Shown here piece after piece: positions 10,956 to 53,278 of a stretch of DNA of 64,000 nucleotides. The stretch lies in the IMG/VR virus record IMGVR_UViG_2721755710_000007, positions 11,410-75,409 of that record, one strand, 5' to 3'. Both the position numbers and the translations under genes were made by a program. Within the stretch, counting starts at the first letter, position 1, and every line of letters starts with the position of its first letter. The notes under the pieces are model-generated. The model was not told the DNA's origin and ran no database searches. It worked only from the letters and a program-made list of their open reading frames with translations. The stretch is from a virus. Taxonomy: Duplodnaviria > Heunggongvirae > Uroviricota > Caudoviricetes.

Positions 10956-12887
10956 TTATGCGTATTGTTGGATGACGGCCAGAACGTCCGCCACGTTGTG
11001 TTTTGTCTCGATAATCCACCAGTTGCCCGGGAAATCGCTGTTCTTCGCCTTCGCTGGCAGCCAGCGAGCGCCGAATTTTTCCTTGATTGCGTCTTTAGCA
11101 CGGAAAAGAACGCCTTTCATGCCGGACGCCTCCTGAAGCCCAAATACCTCACCAGCGGCGAATTTTGGTGCGTACATCATCTTCAGGTCGGCGGTGGATA
11201 CGCGATAATTCAGACCAAGAGACTGAGCTATGCTGGTGGCATCACCCTGTATTGATGATAACTCTTCTTGTTTCTCGTTTCTGGCGGCAATTTCTTCCTC
11301 CGTGATGTTGCCTAGGGCCAGGTTTATCCGATCAGCGTCGGCCTGTTTCTCTTCATCGGTGCGCCCGGCAAGAACCGTGTTAATTCTCTGCAATATCTCA
11401 ACATGATTCTTGCGCATGCTAAGCAATTCCGGCGTAACCTCGTTAAGGTCCACCAGCCCAAGGATGGCAAGGTCGGAAAACATTGATACCAGGTTGTAGG
11501 TCATGCGATAGCTGAGTTGCCCATAGGCTGATGGCAACTGCACCGCATCCATTTGATAGGCATCCATAAATTTAGAGCCGTCGTTTACGACATCCGCAAT
11601 TGCCGGTGTGATTTTCCCTGTGGTGGCGGCCTCCCTGATTGCTGTTACCCACGATTGAGTCAGCGCGGCGACTGCATGATTCAGATTGGCTTTCCGTTCT
11701 GCTGCAATACGCGCGCTTGCAGCGTCCATTGCCTGCTTGATCTCGTCTTTATTGCTGTAAATGCCAATGGTGCCAAACTGTGCTGTGGTGATCTCATAAT
11801 CTGACGCCCGGAACTCATGGGTACCGAAAATGGCATTGGTGACCTCAAGTTCAGAATCCCCGTTACGAGTAGCCCCCTGGCTTGTTTTCTCCGGCATTCT
11901 GGCGATCGCATCCGCTATTGTCTCCTGAATTGCTTCAGGGGATAGCGTATCTCCGTATGACGCGATTACTTCGCCATAATTGGAGCCAAACAGTTCAGTC
12001 AGGAATACTTCTGCCAAACGGACCTGGCGGTTATTCCCTTCCGACATCATACCAAGCACCCATTTTGCAATTGACGACTTCAGCGCGCCGTCACGGCGAT
12101 CCGGGTAAACCGCATGCTTCAGTGGGTCCGTATAGGTACCAACAAAATCAATGCTATAGCCTGACTCTGTAGTCTGAACGCCGTATGAGTCAGTGATTTT
12201 GATCATGCCGCGCTGCTGGAAACGGTAGAAATCGTCACAGGAAATGATGTCGTTAATCCCGGCGATGGAGACGCCACCACTGATTTTCTGCATAACAGCA
12301 TCTTCATCGGGAGTTACATCCACCTGTTTATCCAGCGTCTTCACATCCCAGTTACCCGATTTGGTGCCTTTGAAGGTAAAGATGATCTCCACGTCTGCGC
12401 GCTGGCTGTCGAAGTCCAGCGACTTAATGCGAACGATATCACCGGCACAATCGTAGTATTGGCCTACACGCCATGAGCGATCGCCGATAACAAGGAACTC
12501 ATTCGCATGGTTAACCAGATCAGGATCAACATCCAGAATGCCTTTATTTATTGCATCCTCCACCAGCGGGCGCAGGCGTTTGATATCCGTCGCGGCCTTC
12601 TGAGTACGGTTCAATAATTTCTCATAGCGGGAGATGGCTTGAGTGATATTAGCCTTGCGCTGAATGGCGCTTTTCAACGACGCGCGATAATGTGCTAACA
12701 ACGTACGGTCTGTGTGATGGACGCTACCCCAGCGGGCCTTCCAGTCTGCATTATCAGCTGCTTTGGCCATTAACTGGAGTGCCATCAGTACCAAGAACAG
12801 GAGCACCTCCCACGCTAATAGACTGGCCCCCTGAATCTCACCGTTCTGAAACCACAACAAAAAAACATCAGGAATAAAAAACACCAC
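10956..12887 (-). CDS. hypothetical large protein (up to 643 aa), first gene of operon; true start probably internal (Met codon at 12785 or 12770)
   Basis: Long ORF; codons 17-23 are encoded by an IS2 IRL remnant so the annotated N-terminus is doubtful; no Walker or methyltransferase motifs seen. Confidence 0.5.
   Translation of the reverse strand: MVFFIPDVFLLWFQNGEIQGASLLAWEVLLFLVLMALQLMAKAADNADWKARWGSVHHTDRTLLAHYRASLKSAIQRKANITQAISRYEKLLNRTQKAATDIKRLRPLVEDAINKGILDVDPDLVNHANEFLVIGDRSWRVGQYYDCAGDIVRIKSLDFDSQRADVEIIFTFKGTKSGNWDVKTLDKQVDVTPDEDAVMQKISGGVSIAGINDIISCDDFYRFQQRGMIKITDSYGVQTTESGYSIDFVGTYTDPLKHAVYPDRRDGALKSSIAKWVLGMMSEGNNRQVRLAEVFLTELFGSNYGEVIASYGDTLSPEAIQETIADAIARMPEKTSQGATRNGDSELEVTNAIFGTHEFRASDYEITTAQFGTIGIYSNKDEIKQAMDAASARIAAERKANLNHAVAALTQSWVTAIREAATTGKITPAIADVVNDGSKFMDAYQMDAVQLPSAYGQLSYRMTYNLVSMFSDLAILGLVDLNEVTPELLSMRKNHVEILQRINTVLAGRTDEEKQADADRINLALGNITEEEIAARNEKQEELSSIQGDATSIAQSLGLNYRVSTADLKMMYAPKFAAGEVFGLQEASGMKGVLFRAKDAIKEKFGARWLPAKAKNSDFPGNWWIIETKHNVADVLAVIQQYA
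12819..12839 (+). mobile_element. 21-bp IS2 left inverted repeat remnant
   Basis: TAGACTGGCCCCCTGAATCTC identical to the IRL of the intact IS2 at 19645; similarity stops after 21 bp. Confidence 0.6.
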
Positions 12888-28870: not shown

Positions 28871-29379
28871 CCCAGAAAAACAAAAACCGGCGAGAAGTTA
28901 CCACGAGAACGGAAAGTAAACAAGAATACTCCCATTGACTTATATCAAATAATCAACTTTTTATAAGCTATCCCTAACTTATTGTGTATAGCTGAAAAGT
29001 CAGAGATAAGTTCACCATCTGCATTATTTCTTAAGTTAATAGTTTATTGCTAACTTAATTTATGTATCGACTATTGATATCCATCTTAAAGTAACAATAT
29101 CCCTCTGCATTATTTTTCATCACAAATAATACATCTATTGCACTACGCTCACCTGCTCTAATAAATTTGTATTTTTAAGTCGCGAATGCTATCTTTTCGC
29201 ATCATATTGACCTTTTAATCGTTCAGGCTTATAGTTTCGCCGTCGTAGCAAATTCTGCGACCAGGTTTGACAGCCTGAATGATTGTGCGGACAACCGCAG
29301 ATTTCCGATATTGCGGTATTTTTGTGTCCGTTAAACCGCGTTACGCCCAAATTATGGTGGGGCGTGATGGGGAGGCTTC

Positions 29380-29470
29380 GGCCTGCTGGTTTCACAATCG
29401 CCAGTCTGTCAACCCTGTCACGTCCTGCCACCTGTTTGACAGCGGGTAGCAGGTTGTTAAACCTGATTGT
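29380..29470 (+). ncRNA. c4: expected location of c4 antisense RNA (boundaries not determined)
   Basis: Positional inference only: structured non-coding stretch immediately upstream of icd-ant, as in P1 immI. Confidence 0.3.
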
Positions 29471-32870: not shown

Positions 32871-33561
32871 TACAATCGTTGCGGGTGCTTGAGGCTATCT
32901 GCTTCAGGCATGACCCGAAAAGCAGATAGAAGAAAGCCCCAGATAACATTACGCGTCCTGCAAGACGCTTAACATTAATCTGAGGCCATATCTATGCTTA
33001 GCATACGTAGATTAGCCTCTTACCGACCAAAAGGTCAAGGAGAAGCAGGCTATGAAGCAGCAAAAAGCGATGTTAATCGCTCTGATCGTCATCTGTCTAA
33101 CCGTCATTGTGACGGCACTGGTAACGAGGAAAGACCTCTGCGAGGTACGAATCCGAACCGGCCAGACGGAGGTCACTGTCTTCACAGCCTACGAATCTGA
33201 AAGGTAAGAGACCTGGCGGGGAGTGATCCCCGCCACTCTTCGTGTGTCTGGTAACCTCAATGCACCCTTTTCTCCCCAATAGTGTAAAACACAATGAAGT
33301 AGAAGGAGTTATTTCACATCATGCAAAGATTCAGACCATATCTCCCAATAGCCTTCGCGACATGATGACTTTCAGAAATATCTAGCTGTTAACAAAATTC
33401 CATACTTGCTTTGCTAATACCACCTAGATTATATATGGAAAAATACACCTAAAACTTAAACAAATTATATCCACAACAAACATCCATCTATTAGGATTAA
33501 AATTAATTTAATAATAAATAATACAACACCGGTTCATTTTCTAACAAACCGGTGGGCACCA

Positions 33562-46751: not shown

Positions 46752-47649
46752 GCACTGGAAAAACATTACTATTTATAAACTTTCTCGTGAGGCGGATCTG
46801 ACCGACTTAGAAGATAAAAAGAAAATGATCCTTTTCACGCCATGCGGTAGTCAGGATATGGCCAAGTTCGGTTTTGTATCTCCATTTGGTGATAATTCCG
46901 AAGTTATCGCTATGCATGGAAATGGTTTTATCCTTGTTGAAGCAAAGCGCGAAACAAAAATTCTTCCCCCGCCGGTTATCCAGCGAGCTATTCAAGAAAA
47001 AATTGAAAAACTTGAGCAAGAACAAGCGTGTAAACTGAAGAAAACAGAGAAGGACTCCCTGAAAGACGAAGTTCTGCATTCTCTTCTGCCACGGGCTTTT
47101 TCAAAGTTTTCTGTTATCCAGGCGATCTACGACGGTTCAACTAAACGTATCTATATCAATGCCAGCGCGCGGCAGGCAGAGGATATGCTCGCGCTTATGC
47201 GTAAGTCTCTGGGTTCTCTTCCTGTTGTTCCCCTGAGTGTTGAAAATCCCATTGAATTAACGCTGACCGACTGGGTACGTGATGGTAGTGCTCCACAGGG
47301 ATTTCAAATGGGGGATGCGGCAGAACTTAAGGCAGTGCTTGAGGATGGCGGTATTGCCCGAGTGAAAAAGCAGGATTTGGGAAGCGATGAAATTTCCACA
47401 CACCTGGAAGCTGGCAAGCTCGTCACTAAGTTGGCACTCGACTGGCAGAACCGCATTAAATTTACACTGGACCATAACTTCAGCCTTACCAGCGTCAAAT
47501 TTGCGGATGAATTGCTTGAGCAGAACTCTGATATTGATAGTGAAGATGTAGCGCAGCGACTGGACGCAGATTTCTTCCTGTTGACCAGTGAAATTTCGTG
47601 CCTGGTTGATGCTCTGGTAAATGCCCTTGGTGGAGAGGCTAAGCAGTGA
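46744..47649 (+). CDS. hrdC: RdgC-like recombination-associated protein
   Basis: [19 protein letters not shown]...[11 protein letters not shown]...[23 protein letters not shown] closely resembles recalled E. coli RdgC. Confidence 0.8.
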
Positions 47650-50600
47650 AAGAGCTGTGCTATGGATCTGTTTGCAGTGGAATTGAAGCCGCGAGTATTG
47701 CCTGGGAACCGTTGGGTATGCGTCCGGTTTGGTTTGCTGAAATCGAGCCTTTTCCATCGGCCGTTCTTGCGCTCCGCTGGCCCCATGTCGCCAACCTTGG
47801 CGACATGACAAAACTTGCCAAAAAAGTCTAGGCTGGGGAAATCGAATCCCCTGACGTGCTCGTCGGGGGAACACCATGTTTTACCGCGGGGCATATGGTT
47901 CTTTGTAAAAATGGTTATAAACCAATAGAAGATATTTGCCCTGGCGATTACGTAGTCAGTCATCTCGGGCGGTTACAACAAGTAAAAAGAGTTGGTTCAA
48001 AAATAGCTAATACGGGGTTACTTAATGCCGTTGGGCAGCCTTTAGGTATAAGAACAACCAATGACCATCCCTTCCTGGCGGTTCGGTGGAAAGCCCAAAA
48101 CACCCGGAAAAATGGCACATATTTTAAGAGAGAGTTGTTGTCTGAACCGGAATGGCGAGCAGCATGTGATATGCCGGGATATCAATGGTGCGCTCTAACT
48201 AATTTCAATATTGCATCTCCAGATATTTGTTCTCGGTTCTTGTCTGAAGAACAGGCTATGTATCTTGCGGGCGCTTATGTTGGCGATGGATATATTAGGA
48301 GATGGAGAGGTAAATCTAAGAAGGCGGTTGTTTTTGGCATAAATTGCCAGAAATTGAGAAAGTTTCATTGCCGCATACCAGAAAACATATTTTCCGTGGC
48401 AAGCGAAATCCGAGGGAGCATCAAAGTAACCTTGAATGATACGTGTTATGCCAATTGGCTTAATGAACATTTTGGCGAGTTAAGCCATGCTAAGCGTATC
48501 CCTGCATGGGTGATGTCGCATCCATTGCGTCATGTGTTTTTACAAGGCTATCTTGATACTGATGGGACACCAAGTGGTAAAGCGGGATTTAGAATTAATA
48601 GTGTTAGTCCTGCGCTTGCTTGGGGCGTTGCGGGGTTGTCACAGACTTGTGGTTATGTTTCTTCGGTCAGCTTTATTGAAGTTGAGCCCAAAAAAGTGAT
48701 CGAGGATCGCGTGGTAAATCAACGGAATTATTATCAGGTAACAATCTGCCCGCAGAAATTGTCACGTAAATCAAGATTGGCTCATGGAATGCTTTTACGA
48801 ACAGTCAAAGAGTTTAAATCGGTAGGCCTAGATACTGTATACAACATAGAAGTCGAAGGTGATCATTCCTATATCCTCAATGGTGCGGTGGTCCATAACT
48901 GTCAGGCATTCAGTATCGCGGGATTACGTGGTGGGCTTGATGATGAGCGTGGCGCGCTAACTTTAAAGTATGTGGAGCTTGCAAATGCAATTGACGACAA
49001 ACGGGCTGAGTCATTTCTCAAACCAGCCGTTATCGTCTGGGAAAATGTCCCAGGAGTCTTGTCATCGGCAGATAACGCCTTCGGATGTTTCCTTGCCGGA
49101 TTGGCTGGAGAAGATGCGCCATTTGAACCAGGTGATCGACCTGAATCAGGAAAAAGTAACGCGTTCTGGCGGTGGGATGGCAAAACCGGTTGCCATGCTC
49201 CAAAGTGGCCGCAGTGTGGTTGTATTTATGGGCCGCAGCGAAAGGTGGCCTGGAGAATCCTTGATGCCCAATACTTCGGAGTGGCACAACGACGCCGACG
49301 CGTGTTTGTTGTCGCAAGTGCTCGAACAGACCTCGATCCCGCAACGGTACTTTTTGAGTTCGAAGGCGTGCGCCGGAATATTGCGCCGAGCCGAAAAAAG
49401 AAGGAAATCGCTTCCGCCATTACTGCAAATGGCGCTGCAATCAGTGGCGAAAGCCTAAATCCATGCCTACACGCTGGCATGTCCCCCGGTATGAAATCGA
49501 CGAAAGCCGTAAACGGTTTCAGGATGGCGGCATTTGGGGAATATATTGACGATGAAACCGCATCGACAGTAAAGGCAAGAGACTTTAAAGATGCCACTGA
49601 CCTTGCTGTTTTTAGCAGCACAGGAGCAGGTTTTTGGTCAGAAGGGCATGGTACATTGCGGGCTCGTGAGCAAGAAAGCCATGAGCATCTTGTTACATTG
49701 GCTTTTCCTGAGCGTATGAGCGGTACACAACATGCTGCAACTAAGAATACTTCACCATCTCTAATGGCTAAAAATCCAACAGCTGTTTGCTATGAAGTAA
49801 GAAACGCAGAAGTAGCTGTCCGCCGTCTTACCCCTGTCGAATGTGAAAGGCTGCAAGGTTTTCCTGATGGGCATACGTTGATCCCGACGGAAAAGCGTAA
49901 AAAAGTTAATTCAGATGAACTGGCATATCTTCGCAATCACTATCCAGATTTAAGCGAAGAAGAGGCCGCGATGCTTGCAGCTGACGGACCGCGTTACAAA
50001 GCGATCGGCAATAGTATGGCAATACCAGTAATGCGCTGGATTGGCGATCGGATTACTAAGGCCGTATGTCGGCAGAAAGAAGGAAGTGAAACAAAAGAGC
50101 GAAAAGTTAAACCAGCGGCAGAATTCGAACGGTCCATATTCAAATGGGCTGGTGGAAAATTTGGTGTTCTGGAACAAATCTTTCGCTATTTGCCAGAAGG
50201 GAAGCGCCTGATTGAACCTTTCGTCGGTGGTGGAGCTGTCTTCATGAATGCCGGATACCAGGAAAATCTGCTAAATGATGTGAATGCTGACCTGATTAAC
50301 TTTTACAAGACTCTGCAACGCGAGGCGCATTCACTTATCACTCTGGCTCATCGTTTCTTCTTGGACTACAACACCCAGGAGGGATTCCTGGCAGTACGGA
50401 ATGCGTTTAACAAACAAGTCTATGATGATTTACATCGCGCAGCGGCGTTTTTGTTCCTGAACCGACATTGTTTTAACGGATTGACGCGTTACAACCAGGC
50501 CGGTGAGTTCAATGTCGGTTATGGGAAGTATAAAACTCCGTATTTCCCATTACAGGAGATGGAAGCCTTCCTCGGTGCGGAAGGTCGTTCTGAGTTTGTA

Positions 50601-50933
50601 TGTGGTGATTTTGCTGCGGTGATTGAAGCTGCCGGAGAAGGAGATGTCATTTTTTGCGATCCGCCATATGAACCGCTTCCAAATACAGAGGGATTCACGA
50701 ACTATTCCGGTCATGACTTTAAGTTTGAAGAGCAACAACGCCTGGTGTCTCTGTTGACGGATGCTCATCGCCGAGGTGCAAAGGTTCTCATTACTAACAG
50801 TGGCGCGCCAAACATCAGAGAGCTTTATCATGACAATGGTTTCAGAGTGGAACCTCTTTTTGCCAGACGTTCTGTGTCTTGTAAGGGGGACACTCGAGGT
50901 GTTGCTCATGACGTTTTAGGTATATTGCTCTAA
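47646..50933 (+). CDS. dmt: Dmt-like bifunctional DNA methyltransferase (N-terminal C5-cytosine MTase, C-terminal Dam-like N6-adenine MTase), interrupted by an in-frame TAG at 47829-47831 and by an intein
   Basis: C5-MTase motifs I (CSGIEAAS), IV (GGTP-CQAFS), ENV, QRRR, GNS; Dam motifs KWAGGK, DPPY; exteins total about 753 codons. Confidence 0.75.
47877..48899 (+). mobile_element. intein with LAGLIDADG homing-endonuclease domain (341 codons) within dmt
   Basis: Starts with Cys after GGTP, ends HN followed by Cys; TTNDH block B; [11 protein letters not shown] and [11 protein letters not shown] blocks. Confidence 0.8.
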
Positions 50934-51608: not shown

Positions 51609-51684
51609 GATGGTGTAGCTCAGCGGTTAGAGCGGTTGACTGTTAATCAACGGGTCGATGGTTCAAATCCATCCACCATCGCCA
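51609..51684 (+). tRNA. tRNA-Asn (anticodon GTT)
   Basis: 76 nt; acceptor GATGGTG/CACCATC, anticodon loop CTGTTAA, T-loop TTCAAAT, encoded CCA. Confidence 0.85.
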
Positions 51685-51686
51685 AT

Positions 51687-51762
51687 GCCGGTTTAGCTCA
51701 GTTGGTAGAGCGCCTGCTTTGTAAGCAGGATGTCAGCGGTTCGAGTCCGTTAATCGGCACCA
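51687..51762 (+). tRNA. tRNA-Thr (anticodon TGT)
   Basis: 76 nt; anticodon loop TTTGTAA, T-loop TTCGAGT, encoded CCA; 2 nt after tRNA-Asn. Confidence 0.85.
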
Positions 51763-53202: not shown

Positions 53203-53278
53203 GGCCCTTTAGCTCAGTGGTTAGAGCTGGCGACTCATAATCGCACGGTCACCGGTTCAAGTCCGGTAGGGGCCACCA
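53203..53278 (+). tRNA. tRNA with CAT anticodon (Met, or Ile2 if lysidine-modified; P1 trnI position)
   Basis: 76 nt; acceptor GGCCCTT/AGGGGCC, anticodon loop CTCATAA, T-loop TTCAAGT, encoded CCA. Confidence 0.8.

Follow-up and report, generated by a model that had tools for sequence, protein, structure and literature searches.

Hint domains split by a two-motif LAGLIDADG homing endonuclease are known from the inteins PI-SceI (the yeast VMA1 intein), TliVMA, PI-PfuI and PI-PkoII. In phages, inteins have been described within orphan DNA methyltransferase genes, namely, the mycobacteriophage DNMT-1 and DNMT-2 inteins, which reside in N6_N4_Mtase DNA methylases (Kelley et al. 2016, PMC5050341), and an actinophage methylase intein (PMC9957025); the sporadic distribution of these inteins was attributed to homing. 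The reference P1 Dmt (AF234172, 754 amino acids [aa]) and the P7 Dam protein represent the host gene of interest here, in the same hrdC-dmt-tRNA context, and contain no intein. We analyzed a stretch of 64,000 nucleotides (nt) from a virus of the Caudoviricetes (positions 11,410 to 75,409 of IMG/VR record IMGVR_UViG_2721755710_000007; hereafter the window, to which all coordinates refer unless another record is named) in which the dmt gene of a P1-like element is interrupted by the segment 47877-48899. This segment is very probably a canonical class 1 intein with an embedded two-motif LAGLIDADG homing endonuclease, inserted at GGTP/CQ (the slash marks the insertion point) in the C5-cytosine methyltransferase (C5-MTase) half of dmt. 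It is predicted to splice and to home, and the copy in the window itself is most likely unexpressed.

The intein and its host gene

A preliminary description of the window had placed a full-length LAGLIDADG intein at the PCQ motif of the dmt methyltransferase, with boundaries at 47877-48899 and a length of 341 codons. These boundaries proved to be exact: in the frame of the large open reading frame (ORF), the segment comprised 341 sense codons and zero stops, started with Cys1 in CFTAGH, ended with NGAVVHN and was followed directly by TGT. The hallmarks that had been quoted (N-terminal Cys, TTNDH, two LAGLIDADG blocks and the terminal His-Asn) were all located in the translation. The profile matches, the structural model, the precise excision and the same-site homologues reported below all agree with the assignment. 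The features of the locus are as follows.

47646-47828, plus strand: dmt codons 1-61, the start of the N-extein, from the translation; the GTG start overlaps the hrdC/rdgC stop
47667-47696, plus strand: C5-MTase motif I, within dmt codons 1-61
47829-47831, plus strand: in-frame TAG (amber) at dmt codon 62, which is Leu (TTG/CTT) in all compared relatives
47832-47876, plus strand: last 15 N-extein codons, ending at the Pro of motif IV and containing GTG 47856-47858
47877-48899, plus strand: intein, 341 codons, Cys1 to Asn341, 38.3 kDa
47877-47963, plus strand: N-terminal splicing region, block A (CFTAGHMVL...GY.PIE.I..GD.V..H), covered by Pfam Hint_2 (residues 1-49) and kept in homologues
48054-48074, plus strand: block B, TTNDHPF (Thr61-x-x-His64), from an alignment of 10 homologues
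48264-48296, plus strand: first LAGLIDADG motif, LAGAYVGDG, acidic residue kept, from the PI-PkoII alignment
48540-48572, plus strand: second LAGLIDADG motif, LQGYLDTDG, acidic residue kept, within Pfam LAGLIDADG_3 (residues 221-284)
48834-48899, plus strand: C-terminal splicing region, blocks F and G, from TIGR01443 (intein_Cterm) and the alignment to the Spl DnaX mini-intein
48900-48902, plus strand: +1 Cys codon TGT, the expected splice-junction nucleophile, from the translation and the excision alignment
48900-50933, plus strand: C-extein, comprising the rest of the C5-MTase domain (Pfam PF00145), the Dam-type N6-adenine MTase domain (PF02086) and the stop codon
49041 (ENV), 49287 (QRRRR), 50007 (GNS), 50142 (KWAGGK) and 50658 (DPPY), plus strand: C-extein motifs

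The segment showed each feature of a class 1 intein, namely, Cys1, the block B TxxH, His340-Asn341 followed by Cys+1, and a Hint fold. Cys1 (codon 47877-47879) was kept in all homologues listed, and in block B (T61-N-D-H64, codons 48057-48068) the T, H and P were invariant across the alignment of 10 homologues. The inserted endonuclease likewise had the two motifs with catalytic acidic residues and the alpha-beta fold of a LAGLIDADG homing endonuclease. The GC content of the intein was 43.0%, compared with 54.5% and 48.4% in the flanks.

When the segment was searched against profile libraries, as the preliminary description had proposed, Pfam Hint_2 matched residues 1-49 with 29.6 bits (cut-off, 28.4), Pfam LAGLIDADG_3 matched residues 221-284 with 35.1 bits (cut-off, 22.5) and NCBIfam TIGR01443, the intein C-terminal splicing region, matched with 25.9 bits (cut-off, 15.6). 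Since all three exceeded their curated cut-offs, the match is not attributable to chance. The Pfam Intein_splicing score was under its threshold, and weaker NCBIfam matches were to the intein-containing parts of the RNR, GyrA, DnaB and RFC models. A phmmer search of the PDB sequences returned the Spl DnaX mini-intein (blocks F and G) and PI-PkoII (endonuclease region). The AlphaFold2 model of the intein, calculated from an alignment of 12 homologues, had a mean pLDDT of 91.6 and a pTM of 0.89, and its top Foldseek matches in the PDB were the PI-SceI, TliVMA and PhoVMA inteins, PI-PfuI and PI-PkoII (E values of 5e-17 to 7.5e-9), followed by the free-standing LAGLIDADG enzymes I-Tsp061I, I-SceI and I-OnuI. 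A group I intron and a "ShiLan"-type in-frame insertion (PMC11855218) were both ruled out by the complete Hint domain together with the splice-junction residues.

The dmt intein thus shares with PI-SceI, TliVMA, PI-PfuI and PI-PkoII the split Hint domain, Cys1, TxxH and His-Asn plus Cys+1, and with PI-PkoII also a match in sequence. It differs in being only 11-16% identical to PI-SceI and the archaeal inteins in structural alignment, in its smaller size of 341 aa, in having the DNA C5-MTase of an enterobacterial phage-plasmid as its host, and in the Pro at position -1. Like the DNMT-1, DNMT-2 and actinophage methylase inteins, it lies inside an orphan phage DNA methyltransferase gene, but the host is a PF00145 C5-MTase, that of the DNMT-1/2 inteins being an N6_N4_Mtase. 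Because the insertion site, at the catalytic Pro-Cys of motif IV, is different, we regard it as a different intein allele from DNMT-1/2.

The host gene was identified as a P1-type dmt from the order of its Pfam domains (PF00145 and then PF02086), its orthology to P1 dmt and the hrdC-dmt-tRNA context. The start codon, GTG 47646, is also the annotated dmt start in RCS47, vB_EcoM-Ro157c2YLVW, OP279344 and reference P1, and the frame from this GTG extends over 3288 nt to the stop at 50933, corresponding to 754 Dmt codons plus 341 intein codons. Joining 47646-47876 to 48900-50933 gave a 754-codon product which aligned to P1 Dmt (AF234172) without gaps and with 737 of 754 residues identical (97.7%). 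As had been claimed, removal of the 341 codons restored GGTP/CQAFS, and the host motifs ENV, QRRRR, GNS, KWAGGK and DPPY were all located. From what is established for C5-MTases, the +1 Cys is the catalytic cysteine of motif IV (PCQ). Since the insertion splits the catalytic Pro-Cys dipeptide, the enzyme would be unable to work unspliced.

Distribution and divergence of the intein

Five phage records, representing the three phages RCS47, vB_EcoM-Ro157c2YLVW and OP279344, carried the 1023-nt intein at 99.3-99.8% identity, always inside dmt and never annotated as an intein. In PLSDB, 498 plasmids matched the dmt query; 127 of these covered at least 80% of the query and therefore carry the intein, and about 371 were without the insert. 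Among the 5,426 complete Escherichia coli genomes in RefSeq, the intein was present in 152 (about 3%), at 153 places, of which 148 were on plasmids, and all 153 copies were full length and at least 99.2% identical. Some intein-bearing plasmids were typed as IncY and others, by PLSDB, as IncHI1B, and the hosts were E. coli, E. albertii, E. fergusonii and Salmonella. No intein was present in reference P1, P7 or MH422554. According to the preliminary description, P1 dmt is not known to contain an intein, which is correct for reference P1 but not for many public P1-like records.

In the annotated records inspected, the gene was named simply "Dam family methyltransferase" or "Dmt", and none was labeled as containing an intein. 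Being common in public sequences, the intein is unannotated rather than unseen, and automated surveys may already contain it and its relatives, as Pfam domains are precomputed on the proteins. Our search of open-access full text, which did not extend to intein databases, subscription articles or supplements, gave no description of a dmt intein, nor of one from P1-like phages or any C5-cytosine MTase. Texts that had seemed to match, namely, the BASEL paper, a Thermus phage paper, a plasmid review and the CASP14 paper, proved irrelevant. In the bacterial intein survey of Novikova et al. (2016), methylases were not mentioned in the main text, and the mobilome table had only terminase, portal and secretion-system hosts.

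The divergence of the intein was compared with that of the exteins in six full-length intein-plus dmt alleles (15 pairs). Pairwise mismatches ranged from 5 to 11 per 1023 nt in the intein versus 19 to 155 per 2265 nt in the exteins, the adjacent exteins having 3-15 times the divergence of the intein, third codon positions included. Between the E. albertii and E. fergusonii alleles, for example, third positions differed at 7 of 341 sites in the intein and 99 of 755 in the exteins, and the third-position contrast gave Fisher P values down to 1e-15 and below 0.05 in 14 of the 15 pairs. The flanking haplotypes began to differ 7 nt upstream and approximately 21 nt downstream of the intein. From this population pattern, we infer that the low intein divergence among diverged dmt alleles is the signature of recent homing with short co-conversion tracts.

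The empty sites were of two types, as follows.

Empty junction, MH422554 type: ...GGAACACCT/TGTCAGGC...
Empty junction, P1-reference type: ...GGTACGCCT/TGTCAGGC...

The codon for the Pro at -1 was CCA in nine of nine occupied alleles and CCT in six of six empty alleles examined, and the sequence directly upstream of the insertion point was GGT ACG CCT in the reference alleles versus GGA ACA CCA. The P1- and P7-type empty alleles had three further synonymous changes within 12 nt upstream, and P1 also had the nonsynonymous change G74W. An empty site with flanks identical to those of occupied alleles, which would mark a naive target or a precise loss, was not found in PLSDB.

Several other observations were made on dmt and its surroundings. 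At codon 74, reference P1 Dmt (AF234172, 66412-68676) has Trp for the first Gly of GGTPCQ (VLVWGTPCQ), and the codon encodes Gly in P7, MH422554 and all intein-plus alleles; the C5 domain of reference P1 Dmt may itself be impaired by this Trp. The C-extein exhibited an in-frame length polymorphism of 246 nt, giving a 2265-nt dmt in P1, the window and RCS47 versus a 2019-nt dmt in P7, SJ46, MH422554 and OP279344, and both length forms occurred with and without the intein. The record OP279344.1 is entitled "Escherichia phage P1 isolate del res del mod", and its dmt (61684-64725) combined an intein of 99.8% identity with the short form of the C-extein. Because of these two features, its dmt is not that of the reference P1 sequence. 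Downstream of dmt, the window resembled P1 in encoding tRNA-Asn(GTT), tRNA-Thr(TGT) and tRNA-Met(CAT) at 51609-51762 and 53203-53278; in vB_EcoM-Ro157c2YLVW, an extra tRNA-Tyr was annotated between tRNA-Asn and tRNA-Thr. Two Rfam matches, at 29229-29435 and 32883-33057, fit a P1-like element: the C4 antisense RNA of P1 immunity, together with its targets a1/b1, and the antitoxin RNA sok of a hok/sok-type addiction locus.

Predicted splicing and homing, and the amber allele

In the intact alleles, the 1095-codon gene would be translated into a precursor of approximately 122 kDa. Cys1 would then undergo an N-S acyl shift, aided by Thr61 and His64 of block B, and the thioester would be handed to Cys+1, the methyltransferase's own catalytic cysteine. 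Cyclization of Asn341, aided by His340, would complete the reaction, producing a free 38-kDa intein and an 83-kDa Dmt with the native GGTPCQ motif. Where two P1-like genomes meet in one cell, the free intein would be expected to cut intein-less dmt alleles, and repair would then insert a copy of it, the co-conversion tracts being very short. Homing of this kind, as proposed, would account for an intein that is approximately 99-100% identical across dmt alleles differing by 2-10%.

The window copy departs from this scheme. Apart from the intein, the preliminary description had taken the host protein for an apparently intact Dmt-type fusion, a statement contradicted by the TAG at 47829-47831, which interrupts the frame 15 codons upstream of the intein; the extein peptide quoted at the time, DVLVGGTP, starts four codons downstream of this TAG. 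Because of the interruption, the ORF tool starts the ORF at GTG 47856, as PGAP does. The window dmt region was 100% identical to that of NZ_CP010146.1 (plasmid A of E. coli strain D5, a 112.9-kb IncY P1-like phage-plasmid from a dog), in which PGAP annotated a 1025-aa coding sequence from the GTG at 47856. Across the whole dmt gene, the red-fox plasmid NZ_LR883966 differed from the window by a single base, TTG for TAG, and its dmt was annotated as a 1095-aa protein (WP_097428273). The collection indexed the identical 1025-aa product in 28 blocks, and 24 contigs were read from these. The TAG is also present in GCA_026619765.1, an independent assembly that matched the window over 4.3 kb with 0 mismatches, indicating that the TAG is real, and this assembly and the 28 blocks together ruled out a sequencing error as its source. 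Judged from these sequences, the window dmt is a genuine, clonally circulating nonsense allele. The mutation appears to be recent, since the intact fox-plasmid allele carries an intein identical to that of the window.

Translation from GTG 47646 was predicted to yield a peptide of 61 residues (6.7 kDa), stopping short of both motif IV and the intein. A phage tRNA that suppresses the amber codon was considered and rejected, as the window encodes only tRNA-Asn(GTT), tRNA-Thr(TGT) and tRNA-Met(CAT) and no suppressor. Most likely, therefore, the window copy of the intein is not expressed and is carried as a passenger by a dmt allele that is null or truncated. In P1, dmt is reported to be required only in Dam- hosts (review, PMC12707154). 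Its loss should accordingly be tolerable in ordinary Dam+ E. coli. In McrBC+ hosts, C5-methylation can be disadvantageous, and we speculate that this might favor null dmt alleles.

The TAG would not be a dead end if translation re-initiated at GTG 47856 or read through the amber codon, in which case the precursor would splice to give free endonuclease and a Dmt without motifs I-III, having no C5 activity but an intact Dam domain. This GTG is in frame, 24 nt after the TAG, it is where PGAP begins the 1025-aa coding sequence, and the TAG allele persists on 24-28 contigs. A start at this codon was computed to give a 114-kDa precursor with a 7-residue N-extein, a length normally sufficient for splicing, and splicing would leave a 75.7-kDa protein that lacks motifs I-III and keeps the Dam domain. 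However, GTG 47856 is not preceded by a convincing Shine-Dalgarno sequence, the sole purine-rich run (GGGGA) ending 17 nt upstream; the tRNAs of the window include no suppressor; and as the mutation is recent, persistence of the allele tells little about function. We therefore consider expression from the TAG allele unlikely and retain the unexpressed passenger as our reading of the window copy. For the intein itself, irrespective of the window allele, a domesticated Hint/LAGLIDADG module or bacterial intein-like (BIL) domain which does not splice, and is retained or only cleaves, would change or inactivate the C5-MTase. In favor of such a domain, splicing is so far a prediction, the Pro at -1 might hinder the first splicing step, and the P1 C5 domain is without demonstrated activity, the GenBank note reading "perhaps at C5 cytosine". 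BIL domains are Hint domains that typically lack a conserved +1 nucleophile and occur in variable or nonconserved host proteins. Here, by contrast, the +1 Cys is kept and the insertion lies in a conserved enzyme, at its catalytic motif. In addition, Cys1, TxxH, His-Asn and Cys+1 are all kept across homologues of only 27-54% identity, the insertion splits the catalytic Pro-Cys such that an unspliced enzyme could not work, and about three quarters of P1-like plasmids have the gene uninterrupted. A non-splicing domain is hardly probable at all on this evidence.

Several points weigh against a splicing and homing intein more generally. Both splicing and DNA cleavage, for this intein and for its homologues, are predictions from sequence. 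In engineered inteins, a Pro at -1 disfavors the first step of splicing, although its retention across the whole family argues that the family copes with it. Position -1 is T in all six empty alleles and A in all nine occupied ones, and even the closest empty sites in PLSDB differ at 2 of 80 nt from the flanks of occupied alleles. Among the P1-like intein copies, there were 12 synonymous and 12 nonsynonymous changes, such that purifying selection is weakly supported, and the low intein divergence could have arisen by ordinary recombination rather than by endonuclease-driven homing. Alternatively, the intein might be a vertically inherited relic with a dead endonuclease, rarely lost precisely, whose uniformity stems from ordinary homologous recombination or from a recent common plasmid ancestor. 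The 12:12 ratio, an endonuclease activity that is so far a prediction, and the lack of a PLSDB empty site with identical flanks, suggesting that susceptible targets may be exhausted, are all consistent with a relic. Both LAGLIDADG acidic residues are nevertheless intact and every one of the 153 copies in E. coli genomes is full length. A 3- to 15-fold deficit of divergence relative to the exteins that extends to third positions is hard to obtain by vertical descent, and breakpoints 7-21 nt from the intein ends in different allele backgrounds are unusually local for general recombination. We consequently regard a relic as improbable and a mobile, splicing intein as the better explanation of the pattern.

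A wider lineage at catalytic Pro-Cys sites

Protein searches revealed homologous inteins of 47-52% identity at the same GGTP/CQ junction of other C5-MTases and more distant ones (30-34% identity) at GGYP/CQPFS. Overall, the homologues at the Pro/Cys site were 27-54% identical, with the splicing and endonuclease blocks kept. They included an intein from a Mannheimia haemolytica prophage (P0011), which was indexed in 859 blocks, from which 25 contigs were read, and a mini-intein (P0019) at the same C5-MTase site in a phage-like contig. The Mannheimia intein and those from IMG/VR (L031-L101) share the insertion point and the blocks of the dmt intein, but their host MTases belong to other subfamilies. 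In the same-site homologues inspected, the host MTases were without a Dam fusion, and the inteins were uncharacterized and unannotated as far as found.

A scan of IMG/VR yielded 295 confirmed relatives of the intein, and the insertion sites of the best 80 were classified. Sixty-seven of these 80 were at an xP/CQ junction (one of them xS/CQ). Seven resembled variant motif IV sites, five being PD/C[KT] or PE/C[KT], one FP/CID and one having Ser at +1; the one checked with Pfam (L052) was PF00145 positive. Of the remainder, four were in a protein without a Pfam hit (checked for one, L064), one was at the catalytic PP/CH of a thymidylate synthase and one was in a large ORF starting with a PHP-like motif. 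The preponderance of xP/CQ junctions and the same-site homologues suggest that the dmt intein is one member of a large phage-borne lineage targeting the catalytic Pro-Cys of C5-MTases.

Three of the relatives merit individual mention. In IMGVR_UViG_3300033075_000708 (L069, 2501-3538), a related intein of 30% identity directly precedes the catalytic Cys of a thymidylate synthase (LPP/CHYTYQ; extein PF00303, E value of 2.5e-86), an enzyme that shares its Cys-attack chemistry with C5-MTases. In IMGVR_UViG_2898545487_000004 (L045, 1734-2780), a homologous intein at the same MTase site has Ser at +1 (VVHN/SQGFSLAGLRGG); splicing could be possible, but the spliced MTase would be without its catalytic cysteine. 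In the M. haemolytica chromosomes (L015-L017, 6001-8321), the prophage C5-MTase is frameshifted directly after the intein, and the remaining methylase is encoded by a separate ORF of 177 aa, after which comes an HNH_3 endonuclease gene adjoining the integrase.

These relatives invite a bolder proposal, namely, that a large, apparently undescribed lineage is specialized on the catalytic Pro-Cys of enzymes which attack pyrimidine C6 (C5-MTases and at least one thymidylate synthase), uses the host's catalytic Cys as its splice nucleophile and tolerates Pro at -1, and that in P1-like phage-plasmids it is actively homing and perhaps acts as a conditional switch, for example through redox-sensitive Cys1/Cys+1, to delay C5-methylase activity. 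We offer this as a conjecture and assign it little probability as a whole.

The mechanism proposed for the dmt intein is that of the textbook, and no new kind of biology is opened by it. What appears to be new is the insertion-site allele at the catalytic Cys of a C5-MTase, for which we could not find a prior description. Its interest lies in a widespread, unannotated intein with Pro at -1 and the host's catalytic Cys at +1, belonging to a large lineage for which no description was found. The intein is probably active in the best-known phage family of E. coli. The annotated 1095-aa products are to be read as precursors holding a mobile intein, and the gene in the window is additionally a nonsense allele. 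In the family of P1, the classic phage for transduction, occupied and empty alleles both exist, making homing, co-conversion and splicing with Pro at -1 directly testable, and the presence of the intein in about a quarter of P1-like plasmids makes this a tractable natural system. Methylome work on strains with P1-like plasmids should consider whether dmt is intein-plus, intein-minus or null.

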